The position numbers were made by a program, and so were the translations under genes. A stretch of 63,986 bases of DNA, the filler included, from Porpidia crustulata (Eukaryota): assembly GCA_964255105.1 (NCBI GenBank). It is 4 parts of 4 records of this genome, joined end to end, with 100 filler letters (N's around TTAATTAATTAA, not from the genome) between each part and the next. Parts side by side here need not be neighbours in the genome. Positions count along the whole stretch, not along the records: positions 32,795 to 49,071 come from CAXUWE010000266.1; 3 more parts are not named here. One strand, written 5' to 3'. Shown here in pieces: positions 29,329-38,798 of the stretch. How positions within the stretch are numbered: position 1 is the first letter of the stretch; each line of letters starts with the position of its first letter. The notes beneath the pieces are model-generated. The model ran no database searches, was not told where the DNA came from, and saw nothing but the letters and a program-made list of their open reading frames with translations.

Positions 29329-31983
29329 ATGGCTCCTTCTCCGCCACGGCTACGAATTCTGTCAGGTAAGTCTATAACCCTCGCACTTGCTTCAATTCCT
29401 CTACCTAGTACAAAGCCATCAACGCTTTGTCGAAGGCCGCTCCACGTGGCATTTCCGGCCATTCCCCATGATGGCACCAAAGCTGAGATGTAGTTGCTGT
29501 GTAGTCGGCGGTAACGCGGTTTCAGCGTTCCTTTCATGGAGATTGCAGGCCACCAACGCCTGCGATGTGACATTGGTATGGAAATCTGGCTTTGACGCCG
29601 TTTCGCAGTATGGCATATCATTTAAGTGAGTCACCCAGCTATTTGTCGCTCGAGCAAAAATGTTGACTCGCCTCAGATCCAAGCTCTTTGGCAATGAGCG
29701 TTTTAAACCACGACACGGTCAGTGCAAAGAGCGAAAATCCAGAACAAGAATCGTAAGCTAATATCAGTCTTAGTTGTGAGATCTCCGGAAGACGCGGCAA
29801 ATAGAAAAGCCGCTTTCGACTACGTCCTTCTTTGTGTCAAAGCTTTACCTGATGTCTACGATCTCGCCTCTATCATTGAATCTGTTGTTACGCCCCAACA
29901 TACCTGCATCCTTGTAAACACCACACATACACTCGGGATTGAGTCGCACTTGGAGCAACGGTTCCCGACAAATGTTGTGTTATCGTTAGTCTCTGGAGCA
30001 GAATTAACACAATTAGGGGCAAGCGAATTCGAGCATACTGGGGCTACGGATATCTGGGTTGGTCCGGCAAACAAGAACGCGACCATCCCCGTGGCTATAC
30101 AAAATGATATGGCAGAGGCTTTGGCTATGACTTTGAGCACAGGCCAAGTCGACTGCAAGGTGGCTGTCAACATTAGGCAGCAACAGTATGAGCGTATGAT
30201 AGGGTAAGTGGTGATTGTGCAATTCCACAGAAGATGTGCATTGACCCTTTCTAGTCCTATTGCTTTCCACCCTCCCAGCGTTTTGTTTGAGATTCCTTTA
30301 CACGCCGATTTATTGGAAAAAGTCGGAGTGCGGTCCATGGTCAACGACGTAATAGACGAGCTCCTCGCTGTGGCACGGTCTCAAGGCTGCAGCTTCAACG
30401 ATGATTTCAAAGAGAAAATTATCCAGAATATGACCAAGCCCTCGGAAACTAACAGCATCATGTATCAGGATTACACAGCTAAAAGACCGATGGAAGTCGA
30501 GACTTATCTTGGTTCACCCATTAAACTCGCACAGGAGACTGGGATCAAAGTTCCACGAATTGAAACCCTGTATGCCCTTCTCCATCATTGCAACATTGTC
30601 AATCAGCAACGACCAGCTGTTCCCTCGATACCCCCTCATGCGGCAACAGGACCCACACCACCACCACGATTATCATCCGCCCCTCCCCATCGACCCCCGG
30701 GGAACGGGTCGATAAACGGACATGGAATGAATGGAAATGGAATGCATGGCATGCGAGGAAGAAGGCCCTCGATGGGACCGCCAATGAGAGGAGGACCAAT
30801 GAACGGCTATCCGCCAAGAGGACCCAATGGCTTCAATTCTCGTGGGCCGCCCACAAATCCGCTTTCGAGAAGGCCCTCGTTTGAGGGCAACGATCTCGAG
30901 GAGTTCAGCCACCTTATGCTCTACGACGATGCCATACCGGAAGGAGGGGTAGCCCCTGGGTACAATGATATGAGTAATGGAACAGGCTCTGGAACAGAGC
31001 TGGCAATACGCGAACGGGAATTAAATCTAAGACAAAGAGAACTGCAATTGAGGGAACAGGAGTACAGCATGCGTCGAGGAAGCCGACGACCACCACCGTC
31101 GCATCGAGGAGGATACGACGACGACGATGACGACGACGATGATTTTTTCGACCCTATGGCAGCACGTGGACCGCCGCCGAACGTTGACCCTGAAAACCTC
31201 GACATGATGAGTGTCACATCGCGAAGAAATAGGAAAACGCCTAGCCTCAGTCAAATACGGAAAGATCCAGAAGGGGGTCCAATCGGACGAGGAATGCGCA
31301 ATAGCCACAGCTATGGCCCCAGACCAGGCATGAATCGGAACAGAGTTTCGGCGCAAATGGTGGCGGGTGCCGCAACATTGCACGATCCTCTGATGGATAA
31401 CCCTATGTTAGGATACTCGTCGAACCGTTACGCCGGAGTTGATAGAAAAGCCATCGCGGACGACTCAAGAGCGAACTCATTGACAGCAGCGCGTTTGAGC
31501 GAATTACAAGGCGCCGGCACCACCGCCGGAATGAATGGCGCGTACCCAGTACCACCAGCCAGTCGACGGACAAGTCACTCGCCAGGTAACCCTTTCGGTC
31601 CTGGAGGAAGGGTGAGTGTGAATGGAAGGCCGTCACCACCGCATGACGGATATATGGGGGCACCGGGGGCGATGCCACATGGTGGACCATCGCCTCCGGG
31701 GATGCGTCAGCCTGTACCTCGATACCCTCCTGGGCAGGGTAACGCGGTGGCACCACAACAAGTCGAGCAGCATGCTGGGGTGAGCAACCTTTACCCACCC
31801 AAAGGTCCCGCACAAAAGAATGTACGCAGTCTGACCGGTAGTGCGAGCGCTAGCGCGGGGAGTGGCGATAGCGGAGCCAGCGCTCAATTAGATTCGGAGA
31901 ACTCTGCGCAAAGCAGCCAAAGCAGTCTCGGTCCTCGACGACAGGCATTGGGTATACCACGGGCCCCTATCGGCGTCAGGTGA
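29329..31983 (+). CDS. Ketopantoate reductase (ApbA/PanE)-fold protein, Svl3/Pam1-like, with long Pro/Gly-rich tail
   Basis: RLRILS/VGGNAVSAFLSWRLQATNACDVTLVWKS, FDYVLLCVKALPDVY, SIMYQDY..KRPMEVETYLGSPIKLA; 4 introns. Confidence 0.88.
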
Positions 31984-33809: not shown

Positions 33810-34769
33810 CTAACAGCATCCACCAGCCGAGCCTGACTGTACACCTTGACCTTGGCCGACTTGGACTGTGGGTTTATTGTTGACGGTCGTGGTGCCCATT
33901 CGCTCTTTGATTTGGCGTGCCATGGTTAGGAAGGCTTGCTCGACGTTTGAGGCGTTTTTGGCGGAGGTTTCTAGGAAGGGGATGCCCAGGCTGTCGGCAA
34001 ATTCCTAAGATAGCGGAATCAGTATCGACTTGGGCTCTGGAGCTAGAGATAAGCGGATCAAAACTCAGCACACCTTTGCAACCGTGTACTCGACGACCTT
34101 TTTATCCGACATATCGCTCTTGTTTCCCACAAGTAGCTTGTTCACGCCTTCGGTCGCGTACCTATCGATTTCTTGCAGCCATTGTTTGACATTGTTGAAC
34201 GAGTCCATATCTGTTACATCATAGACAACGCAGATGCCATGAGCACCTCGGTAGTAGGAGGATGTGATTGTGCGGAATCGTTCTTGTCCTGCGGTATCCC
34301 ACTATCATTCAGGTCAGTTTCTACTGTTCGATCGAGTTACAGTAGTAAGAGCTCACAATTTGAAGTTTTACTGTCTTGCCGTCAAGTTCGATCGTTCGGA
34401 TTTTCTAGGAATTTATTAGCGGAACCGTTGCAAGGCTCGTAGCGAGGACATCCCTTACAAAGTCGACACCGATCGTAGAAATGTAGCTCTCGGTGTATGT
34501 ATCATCGGCGAATCGTAAAAGCAGGCAAGACTTCCCAACTCCGGAGTCACCGATAAGGAGGAGTTTGAAGAGGTAGTCGTACCTAAGGCAAAGGGCGCTC
34601 AGCAAACGTCACCCTCACATAAACTGTTCAGCTATCCAGCTGAGAGGAGAGATAGAGCTCGCTACGACGTTGCAATAGAATTCTAGCATTAGTACTCTGT
34701 AAAAGGTAATATGTCAGTGGCTCGCTATGCTCTTCAGCCATGGGAGGCAGCGTACTACTCTGGATTCAT
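33810..34769 (-). CDS. ypt1: Rab1/Ypt1 GTPase (ER-to-Golgi traffic)
   Basis: [79 protein letters not shown]-terminal GGCC prenylation motif. Confidence 0.98.
34583..34758 (-). other. Putative [D3,4] stwintron: 59-nt internal intron (34755-34697) interrupting the donor GTA|AGT of a 117-nt external intron
   Basis: Minus strand reads ATGAATCCAGA | GTA [GTACGC...CACTGAC...TTTTACAG] AGTACT...GCTGAG...CCTTAG | GTACGACTAC; removing the internal intron creates GTAAGT, and the second splice restores MNPEYDY. Confidence 0.75.
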
Positions 34770-36019: not shown

Positions 36020-38798
36020 CTAACGATAAGCTCCGCCAAAGCGAGGTACATTTGTTTGGGCGCTCGGAAATCGATTGGCAGGAACTCCCACACCGGGGCC
36101 GGGATGGGTTGCGTAAGCTGGGTTACAGCACAGCATGCCGACACGAGAACCGAACTTCGAGCCACGGAGAGACACCATGTGTTTACTGCAGTCCGTAAGC
36201 AAGATATCTGCGTTCATAGGGACAGAAAGTGCACCTACCGAATATGGGATGCGACAATGTCACGATGGGTTGGGTTCGCATGGGTGAGTATGTACTGGAT
36301 CAGGTAATTTCCATATTGGTCGCTGGCAACTACAGAGGGATTAGTACAGCTAACAGTTTAGACACGGAAACGGCTTACTGTCGATGAGAGGGATGCGGGG
36401 ACGGTCAGCACGTCCCTCGCAAACACGCTCGAGATACCGCTCCAAAAAATCTGCATTGCCAATCTTGAGGCACTTCTCGACTACCTTAGACGCAAATTGA
36501 TCCATACTATACTCGGTCGCATATCGAAGGACATGGTCAACGGCGCGACTCCGATCTTGGGGCGCTCCATGTTCGCAGATATGTTGAATGCACCAATTTC
36601 CGAACTGGCCATGAGCGACAATATCAATACTTGCGAGAACTTCGTTGATGCAGGGACGCTGTTATGATTGTCAAGCCTATTAGCTTCCATTACTGTAGGC
36701 TGAGACGATTCCACAAACCTTGTCTTCTTCGAGGCAATTTTCGAAGATATTCTGCACGACCAAGCTACCAGTCTCACCAAGGGCGACGTCATGCCACATC
36801 CCCGCCAATGCCTCGTTGACGTACTTCATGATCTGTGGCGGAGAGTCACTCCAGCGTAGCTCGAATAATTTCTGCCACACATGGCAAGCATAGCGATGAA
36901 TGACTGTTTCTGGGATTCGTCGTAGAAGTTCATGAACCATAATGGCTTTGTAATCCTCTGGAACGGCATCGAAAGCCTTTTGGACAACATGACAGCCAAA
37001 AGCATCCATACTGAGGCTTAAGGTGTTTCCTCGGATAGCGTTAGCAATGGCGATGACCTGCTCGGGTGTGCCGTGCTCGAAGCATCGTTGCACGAGGAAG
37101 TTCCCAAAGCGATTGACCATCAATGGATAAGCCTGAGCAACAATGGCCTCGATGATCTCGTATTTATGCTCAACAGTACCGATTTTGAGCTTTTGTTGTA
37201 GAAAGATTGAAGCTTGCTGGTCGTTGTTGCACACAATCTTATCAACAATATACTTCCAGTTGCATGTAACAGTTCGATCAAGAAGACGACGGTAATTGAG
37301 AGGCTCCATCGGTGAAACGTAAGTTTGCCCTGGCGATGATGGTGGCTGCAATCTCTCAGTTTCTCGGATGACAAATATATGAAGATGACTCACAGCTGCA
37401 TTCCAAGGATTGACGGATGACTGGCTCGTCGTAAACTCTTCCGCTGTAGGAGAAAGAGGTGTACCAATGGGTCGCGGCTGATACGGCATCGAAGCTGGAT
37501 ACATACCAGCGGACTGGTAAGCTGTACTGGGACCCATTCCAAGATTTATGCCTTCTACGCCTCCAACACCACCGGTGTACATGTCCCAGCCATTGTTGCG
37601 GGGTTGTGGATAGAACGAGGTAGCACGGTTACCATGCGTGTTGGGCCGACAAAGGCCAACGCCAGAACTGGGTTGGAAATGGCCATATTCATTCAAGCCA
37701 CGAGCATCGCTACCAGACGCAGGAGATGCGGGTCCAGAGTATGTCCGCTGTTGCTGCAAGTGTTGAGGCTGCGGCAGCATGGGTGCTGGCAAAGCAGTGC
37801 CTAGAACGCGATGATTCCAAGGACGAGCACCTGGTTGTCCCCAATTCGTACTGGCTTGCGGATAGTTAACACCAGGGATGGTGGAATTCATGTTGGCTCT
37901 AGATGATGGAGACCATATATTGCTGGGGTTATAAGTCCCAGTAGACATGGCGTCCGATATGTCAGACTGAGCGTCGTCGTTGATACGCCAGCTGTCTTGA
38001 CGACTGCTCTTGAAACGGCCTGAGGGACTGAAGAGATTTTGCTTGTCGGTCTTATAGGCAGGACTTACAATAGTAGTAACGGGTTTCTTGCTTACACGTG
38101 TCTGGTCAAGCTGTTCCTGCTGGCGTGCAATCTGGTTATTGGCAGCATCAAGCTCTTTCTTCAAGCGAGCCATCTCGCCTGCGCCAATCTCAAGGGGTTC
38201 TTCCATTTTCTTACTTTCAGAGCTGTGTTCGTCGGTCAAAGACTCTGAAGCAGGTGTCAAGAGGACCGAGCTTGTGGAAGATTCGCCATTTCCGATGGCG
38301 CTGTCCTTGTCATCTTGAGCTGAAACTTCGTTCTTCTGTTTCTCCAACAACGCTTGCTGTTCGGAAAGCTTGGCGAGCAAAGTGTCCATCGTGGCAGACG
38401 GCATCTCGCCTTTATGGGTGGAAGCGGAGTGATTGATTTTTAACTTCTATCACCATCAACGAAGTCCAAATCTACGAAGAATGATTGTGCCTAGCAAACC
38501 TTGTAAGCAGAAGCTGCTTGACTACCCGACTGGGCCTGTGCGTTTCCCATCTTAGAGGTCATTAAGGGAGATGGACCATCATTAGACGCAATGGCATGCT
38601 TGGTGCTCTATGTACGGTCAGTGGTTAATCTGATCTCTAACTTTGTATCCACGTTAGGTACTGGGTTTGACATACAGAGCTGACCTGACGCGTGGTGGCG
38701 GCAGTATTCTGACTACCATCCTTGTCTTCATGAATAACAAATCTAGATGCTGGACGAGAACGAGCCGCCGGAGATCCATCCGAAGGAAGTGCCGACAT
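36020..38798 (-). CDS. Pumilio/PUF-family RNA-binding protein
   Basis: Puf repeats NNDQQASIFLQQKLK, MVNRFGNFLVQRCFE, SMDAFGCHVVQKAFD, HRYACHVWQKLFE, ASDQYGNYLIQYIL, LRGSKFGSRV; the start exon is less certain. Confidence 0.92.

Follow-up and report, generated by a model that had tools for sequence, protein, structure and literature searches.

Analysis of a 63,986-nucleotide (nt) stretch of DNA from Porpidia crustulata (assembly GCA_964255105.1; four parts joined end to end, hereafter the window) revealed a ypt1 gene, encoding a Rab1/Ypt1 guanosine triphosphatase (GTPase), on the minus strand of the part derived from CAXUWE010000266.1. The first intron of this gene is most probably a conserved donor-disrupted spliceosomal twin intron (stwintron) of type [D3,4], in which a complete inner intron lies directly after the third of the six donor bases of an outer intron. 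The nested architecture was read directly in the sequence of the window, the same layout was found to be conserved in the orthologous loci that were recovered, and the final exon 1-exon 2 junction was observed in RNA of a close relative.

The first-pass annotation of the window, made from the sequence alone, had proposed this twin intron, and all of the coordinates and letters that it gave for ypt1 intron 1 were found in the sequence on the minus strand. The following features make up the 5′-end of the gene:

34769-34759, minus strand: ypt1 exon 1, ATGAATCCAGA, 11 nt, encoding M, N and P plus two bases of the E codon
34758-34583, minus strand: the whole first intervening sequence, the proposed [D3,4] stwintron, GTAGTA...TAG, 176 nt
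34758-34756, minus strand: 5′ part of the split outer donor, GTA, read in the sequence
34755-34697, minus strand: inner intron, 59 nt, conforming to the strict intron model
34755-34750, minus strand: inner donor GTACGC, read in the sequence
34718-34713, minus strand: inner branch element ACTGAC, with the branch A at 34714
34699-34697, minus strand: inner acceptor CAG, read in the sequence
34696-34694, minus strand: 3′ part of the split outer donor, AGT; GTA and AGT form GTAAGT after excision of the inner intron
34603-34598, minus strand: candidate outer branch point GCTGAG, with the A at 34599, agreeing with DYTRAY at 5 of 6 positions
34585-34583, minus strand: outer acceptor TAG, whose join to exon 2 was seen in the RNA contigs of the relative

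The strict intron model consisted of a GTNNGN donor, a DYTRAY branch element and an HAG acceptor; a relaxed branch model was needed for GCTGAG. Under the strict model the inner sequence was a complete canonical U2 intron of normal length (the other introns of the gene measure 54-69 nt), with 13 nt that end in a T run between ACTGAC and the inner acceptor. The outer intron measured 117 nt without the inner one and was found to have a downstream branch element and acceptor of its own, GCTGAG and TAG, the former lying 16 nt before the intron end with 12 nt separating the motif from TAG. The first base of exon 2 was 34582 and the exon began with GTACGACTAC; joined to exon 1 it gave ATG AAT CCA GAG TAC GAC TAC, which translates as MNPEYDY. 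The statements of the first-pass annotation on the simpler splices also held: use of the inner donor with the distal acceptor yields GAG TAG, removal of the inner intron only gives GAG TAA, and the sole one-step GT-AG route is the one that uses GTAGTA as its donor. This one-step head matched GURWGY at 3 of 6 positions, compared to 6 of 6 for the restored donor GTAAGT.

The five-exon ypt1 model on the minus strand formed an open frame of 201 codons (201 amino acids). Downstream of the first intervening sequence it was composed as follows:

34582-34459, minus strand: exon 2, G plus the residues ending in GVDF
34458-34405, minus strand: intron 2, 54 nt, donor GTAAGG, branch element GCTAAT
34404-34357, minus strand: exon 3
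34356-34302, minus strand: intron 3, 55 nt, donor GTGAGC, branch element ACTGAC
34301-34074, minus strand: exon 4
34073-34005, minus strand: intron 4, 69 nt, donor GTGTGC, branch element ACTGAT
34004-33810, minus strand: exon 5, including the stop codon

The donors of introns 2-4 were all canonical. Intron 1 was the odd one out, being headed by GTAGTA and having, at 176 nt, 2.5-3 times the length of the other introns of ypt1; the set against which donors were compared consisted of the other introns of this gene and of its orthologues. Exon 4 scored 138 bits with human Rab1A and 128 bits with yeast Ypt1, against 94 bits or less with Rab10, Rab35 and Rab8, and three exons matched Pfam Ras. The first Y of exon 2 aligned to residue 5 of the full-length yeast Ypt1, which leaves four residues to be supplied from upstream, the number that MNPE provides. 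By these sequence comparisons the host gene is a Rab1/Ypt1 GTPase, nearer to Rab1/Ypt1 than to other Rabs, which agrees with the identity first assigned to it.

A scan of metagenomes with a degenerate pattern that began at the acceptor AG, ended after the twelfth codon of exon 2 and so left the donor region outside, revealed four ypt1 loci (L001-L004); the same kind of scan gave 0 matches in prokaryote genome contigs and 0 in viral contigs. All four loci encoded ATGAAYCCNGA followed by GTR, an inner intron and AGN, with strict branch elements and YAG acceptors. The pattern GTA[GT...AG]AGT, which the first-pass annotation had singled out for comparison across species, was thus kept in 4/4 loci in the form GTR...AGN, and the nested intron lay between donor positions 3 and 4 in each, as the [D3,4] reading has it. 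The signals of the four loci were as follows, the head and the inner donor, and the inner acceptor and the bases after it, being separated by a slash:

L001: GTA/GTGCGT, inner branch element GCTAAC, TAG/AGA, inner intron 91 nt, restored donor GTAAGA, outer branch element GCTAAC
L002 (close to L001): GTA/GTGTGT, inner branch element ACTAAC, TAG/AGA, inner intron 91 nt, restored donor GTAAGA, outer branch element GCTAAC
L003: GTA/GTAGGT, inner branch element ACTAAC, CAG/AGT, inner intron 59 nt, restored donor GTAAGT, outer branch element GCTGAC
L004: GTG/GTGCGG, inner branch element GCTGAC, TAG/AGC, inner intron 74 nt, restored donor GTGAGC, outer branch element ACTGAT

Exons 2-4 of the orthologues showed 97-100% protein identity to the window, and introns 2 and 3 were at the same positions. 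Identity at the third codon positions of exon 2 was 19-24/41 between lineages (38/41 between L001 and L002); on this measure the synonymous sites across the four lineages are near-saturated and the lineages deeply diverged. An alignment of the intervening sequences with MAFFT showed that only the head, GAGTRGTNNG, and the tail, AG/GTACGAC, were kept, the interiors being unalignable. A G at position +5 was found in none of the five one-step heads, in all inner donors (5/5), in all restored donors (5/5) and in all donors of introns 2-4 (15/15). L001 and L002 differed from one another at 22/177 positions and at 2/30 signal positions, both of them degenerate consensus sites, a comparison of low power that is consistent with the proposed signals. 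The total length of the first intervening sequence was 152-177 nt, which is about that of two normal introns of these genes (50-88 nt). Where the head is GTA, shifting the borders of the intervening sequence by as much as 3 nt would leave the mRNA unchanged; the GTG of L004 (148-156) removes this 3-nt ambiguity, and only GA/GTG...CAG/GTAC keeps MNPEYDY there. Half-spliced RNA would encode a stop at codon 5 in 5/5 sequences (TAA or TGA), and a splice from the inner donor to the distal site would give a stop in 4/5 and an in-frame Trp (MNPEWYDY) in L004.

A second AG directly follows the inner acceptor in the window (CAG/AG, 34697-34694), as it does in all five sequences, because restoring A4G5 makes this second AG unavoidable. 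Splicing at it in the window would leave the dead-end donor GTATAC. An alternative inner intron of 94 nt (ACTAAT...TAG, restoring GTACGA) was considered and rejected: it is possible only if an earlier AG is skipped, it places C at +4, and the orthologues lack an equivalent.

RNA evidence was obtained from the assembled contigs of a soil metatranscriptome (X1; 0.10 of the words), which come from a close relative and not from the same organism. The relative differed from the window at 5 of the 124 nt of exon 2 and at 10 of the 137 nt of 5′ untranslated region (UTR) and exon 1, and the identity of the two X1 contigs at the exon 1-exon 2 junction was roughly 93-96%. One of these contigs, aligning over 34892-34756 (5′ UTR and exon 1), ran on with CGACTACCTCTTCA; the other ended at 34582, and its next ten letters were TGAATCCAGA in reverse complement. 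The loose ends of the two contigs gave the mature join ..TGAATCCAGA/GTACGACTACC.. (CCAGA/GTACGAC), from which the whole intervening sequence was precisely gone. This is the junction that the first-pass annotation expected in mature mRNA, seen here in the close relative. Joins across introns 2, 3 and 4 were also present in the X1 contigs. The contig carrying the 5′ UTR to 34892 showed no further exon in the roughly 120 nt upstream, so that a different start exon, named at first pass as a way in which the reading could fail, was not encountered in it. No X1 contig was located within intron 1, which carries no weight given that these are contigs from a related organism. A second dataset (X2) contained one near-identical contig over the whole stretch, introns included, with the library type unrecorded; it is probably source DNA, hence not independent support.

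From the layout and the final junction we infer as follows in what order the reactions occur, what intermediate they pass through and what becomes of mis-spliced RNA. The first usable donor (with G5) belongs to the inner 59-nt intron, which would be defined and excised first by intron definition; this intron is expected to leave first because the outer donor reads GTAGTA, without G at +5 and with only half of the GURWGY positions matched. Excision of the inner intron would fuse exon 1 and its GTA to AGT, creating the consensus donor GTAAGT. In a second standard reaction this donor would be used with the branch element GCTGAG and the acceptor TAG to remove the 117-nt outer intron, joining CCAGA to GTACGAC and giving MNPEYDY. 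RNA that is half-spliced (GAG TAA) or mis-spliced to the distal acceptor (GAG TAG) would stop at codon 5. It is possible that, through this codon-5 stop, the dosage of Rab1 is coupled to splicing and nonsense-mediated decay; such coupling by the distal route would not be universal because the L004 mis-splice gives Trp and not a stop.

Several observations weigh against the [D3,4] stwintron. The comparison covered five sequences from about four lineages, and the orthologues were all metagenome contigs. The outer branch candidate of the window, GCTGAG, was a weaker match than the outer elements of the four orthologues, which were all strict, and two orthologues (L001 and L002) restore GTAAGA, which agrees with the consensus at 5/6 positions. 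Neither the intermediate ..CCAGAGTA/AGTACTAATG.. (GAGTA/AGTACT) nor a lariat was present in the X1 contigs, an assembly in which rare or short-lived forms would not be visible. A share of the RNA may well be spliced in one step or to the distal site alongside a main two-step route. Finally, the nested motif was at chance level in the window. A search of both strands of the 64-kilobase window with the full [D3,4] motif model (GTR + GTNNGN + strict branch element + HAG + WG + outer branch element + HAG) gave 3 matches, compared to 2.07 +/- 1.5 in 100 dinucleotide shuffles:

38716, minus strand: motif match inside an open frame upstream of a PUF gene, rejected as chance level
34758, minus strand: motif match that corresponds to ypt1
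6952, minus strand: motif match with no obvious exon context, rejected as chance level

Taking the window by itself, 2-11% of intron shuffles likewise produced the nested pattern. When GTAGT and the last 30 nt were fixed, 395/20000 shuffles gave a nested intron restoring W4G5, and 2162/20000 did so when the whole inner donor was also fixed. For L001-L004, nested introns were obtained in 205, 288, 192 and 29 of 20000 shuffles with GTRGT fixed and in 1023, 1160, 821 and 179 of 20000 with the inner donor fixed. By itself the window sequence is only suggestive, and the nested layout goes beyond chance because the orthologues keep it: the joint chance over four lineages (window, L001, L003 and L004, with L001/L002 counted once in the product) was 2e-6, the functional downstream donor being granted.

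The chance count of the motif (3 vs 2.07) and its frequency among the intron shuffles favour an ordinary intron of 176 nt that is excised whole in one reaction from the weak, non-consensus donor GTAGTA and in which the nested signals would play no part. GTAGTA...TAG obeys the GT-AG rule and yields the right mRNA, and in one Lipomyces species one-step removal coexists with two-step removal (PMC7138796). We nevertheless consider such an intron unlikely. It leaves unexplained the GT at +4/+5 and the G at +8 in 5/5 sequences despite unalignable interiors, the recurrence of a strict branch element, YAG and an AG that restores G5 each time (~2e-6), and the presence of G5 in all 15 other donors but never at the head of intron 1.

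More doubtful still is a tandem donor of the GYNGYN kind, in which the donor at 34758 would be productive and the stronger donor at 34755, spliced to the distal acceptor, would give an RNA with 3 additional nt and a stop at codon 5 that tunes Rab1. Both GTAGTA and GTGGTG fit GYNGYN, a motif known for alternative 3-nt donor choice (PMC1779574), and like ypt1 such donors have two GT dinucleotides 3 nt apart at the exon end. The form with 3 additional nt reads GAG TAG in 4/5 sequences, and distal-site mis-splicing has been reported for [D1,2] stwintrons (PMC9024468, PMC12403724). GYNGYN donors, however, lead to two alternative one-step products, whereas ypt1 adds a conserved nested acceptor and a restored donor, and, even with the downstream donor given, chance would seldom supply a nested acceptor that restores W4G5 (product 2e-6). 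The in-frame Trp of L004 means that the regulatory stop would not be conserved. The X1 contigs of the relative, in which GTAGTA would be the GYNGYN motif at issue, contained only the short form and no form with 3 additional nt, which is weak evidence since contigs drop rare variants.

That the gene model is wrong, with a different start exon or a pseudogene whose odd donor is never used, is very improbable: many public Ypt1 annotations from Pezizomycotina do have other N-termini, but the aberrant ones are mostly ..RYDYLFK, as expected of read-through of the acceptor AG/G, while the RNA contigs of the relative carry the 5′ UTR from 34892 to exon 1 joined to exon 2, and the 201-amino-acid open frame has Rab1/Ypt1 as its best match, yeast Ypt1 having exactly four residues before YDY.

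The comparison of the proposed [D3,4] stwintron with published systems rests on the papers cited here and in the following paragraph. The first-pass annotation had listed [D1,2], [D2,3], [A2,3] and [D5,6] as the main known types. These are indeed described, together with cases next to the donor (PMC9024468, PMC5639578, PMC12403724, PMC5587772); the list was incomplete in that [D4,5], [D6,7] and [D7,8] have been described in the reticulon-like gene of Lipomyces (PMC7138796). 'Almost all' of the described stwintrons are [D1,2] (stwintron literature including PMC6616335 and PMC8469720). In the papers cited, [D3,4] is the one donor slot unreported among the described splits, which fall after bases 1, 2, 4, 5, 6 and 7. 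A phrase search of the published stwintron literature found no [D3,4] stwintron, in ypt1 or elsewhere, the type name itself not being text-searchable. A search of full-text literature gave no match for ypt1 as a stwintron host, stwintron and GTPase co-occurring only in one general review, and one supplement of PMC9024468 contained no ypt1, Rab or GTPase entry. For other [D] types, inside-out two-step excision with a detectable intermediate has been shown, and in filamentous ascomycetes splice sites are recognized in pairs across the intron, by intron definition (for both, PMC5639578, PMC12403724, PMC5587772, PMC7138796). Conservation of the nested layout in orthologues despite divergence serves as validation of stwintrons in this literature.

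The closest likenesses were with the [D2,3] stwintron of the biotin gene bioDA in Sordariomycetes and with [D1,2] stwintrons (Flipphi, Fekete; PMC5639578, PMC9024468). As in ypt1, these are U2-in-donor nestings at a conserved gene position, the outer donor is canonical only after inner excision and the distal mis-splice is faulty. In them, as in ypt1, loss of the inner site would be deleterious, which would account for the stability of the stwintron. Unlike these, which are split after base 2 or base 1, ypt1 is split after base 3, so the distal mis-splice leaves 3 nt and stays in frame with a stop (GTA) or Trp (GTG), whereas [D1,2] and [D2,3] give a frameshift. The stwintrons of the Lipomyces reticulon-like gene also occupy the first intervening sequence and have an inner donor a few bases downstream of the outer donor. 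Their types differ between species of one yeast genus, whereas ypt1 has one type in four deeply diverged lineages. Under the 'stwintronisation' model, the Lipomyces stwintrons arose from a small tandem duplication of the donor start (PMC7138796). The heads GTAGTA (window and L003) and GTGGTG (L004) resemble the outcome of such a duplication of 3 nt, a likeness only. The rtnA stwintron is, like that of ypt1, position-conserved, apparently old, donor-disrupted and near the 5′-end of its gene; it differs in its split position and lies in a poorly conserved N-terminal extension, whereas that of ypt1 interrupts codon 4 of a highly conserved protein.

Recursive (ratchet-point) splicing removes long animal introns in successive steps, a 5′ splice site being regenerated after the first. 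Ratchet points read YAG/GT, and the donor is regenerated from downstream bases alone. Stepwise removal with a regenerated donor is common to this process and to the proposed ypt1 route, but in ypt1 the donor would be rebuilt from two halves, and the internal acceptor was followed directly by AG in 5/5 sequences instead of the GT of a ratchet point.

The ypt1 [D3,4] stwintron may also be old and widespread, fixed before several major filamentous ascomycete lineages split and kept since, although we put this forward tentatively, at somewhat less than even chances. If true, it would supply the missing donor-split type and rank with the deepest-conserved stwintrons. No Rab1 mRNA of these fungi could then mature except by splicing in two steps, and the codon-5 stops of half-spliced and mis-spliced products would act as an inbuilt check on Rab1 output. 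Stwintrons provide the clearest evidence for intron definition in filamentous fungi and are models for intron birth and loss. Most of those described are species-specific [D1,2] copies; that of ypt1 interrupts codon 4 of a housekeeping gene that is essential and hardly varies, and would therefore offer a natural, strongly selected test bed in which any mutation of an inner site is expected to be strongly deleterious if not lethal. The 3-nt split, which keeps the distal mis-splice in frame as a stop or a Trp insertion, sets it apart from the [D1,2] frameshift. For annotation, gene callers that demand a canonical donor or miss the 11-nt first exon will mis-annotate Ypt1, and a conserved stwintron would account for the frequency of wrong N-termini in public Ypt1 models.

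Public Ypt1 protein models were inspected in 35 sequences fetched among 120 listed. Many were too long or too short (P0043, P0044, P0046, P0052, P0053, P0066, P0068, P0069, P0071, P0074, P0086, P0090, P0094 and others). The wrong-length models, which came from several filamentous ascomycete classes, had unrelated N-termini that run into ..RYDYLFK, equivalent to in-frame read-through of AG/G, and two such ..RYDYLFK clusters had 207 and 280 member sequences. Evidently the 11-nt exon 1, or the unusual donor that follows it, escapes gene callers. Three models (P0050, P0090 and P0116) start with MNPEV..., which needs GAR GTN after the Pro codon and not GAG TAG; these sequences hint at another exon 1 border or intron structure in some lineages, possibly a 1-nt shift or a different nesting. 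The N-termini of public models were rejected as evidence for the spread of the stwintron, being indirect, given that any gene caller will struggle with a first exon of 11 nt.

Two further open reading frames in the window belonged to ordinary fungal nuclear genes:

36680-38446, minus strand: open reading frame encoding Pumilio/PUF repeats
30208-31983, plus strand: open reading frame encoding a ketopantoate-reductase C-terminal (ApbA_C) domain

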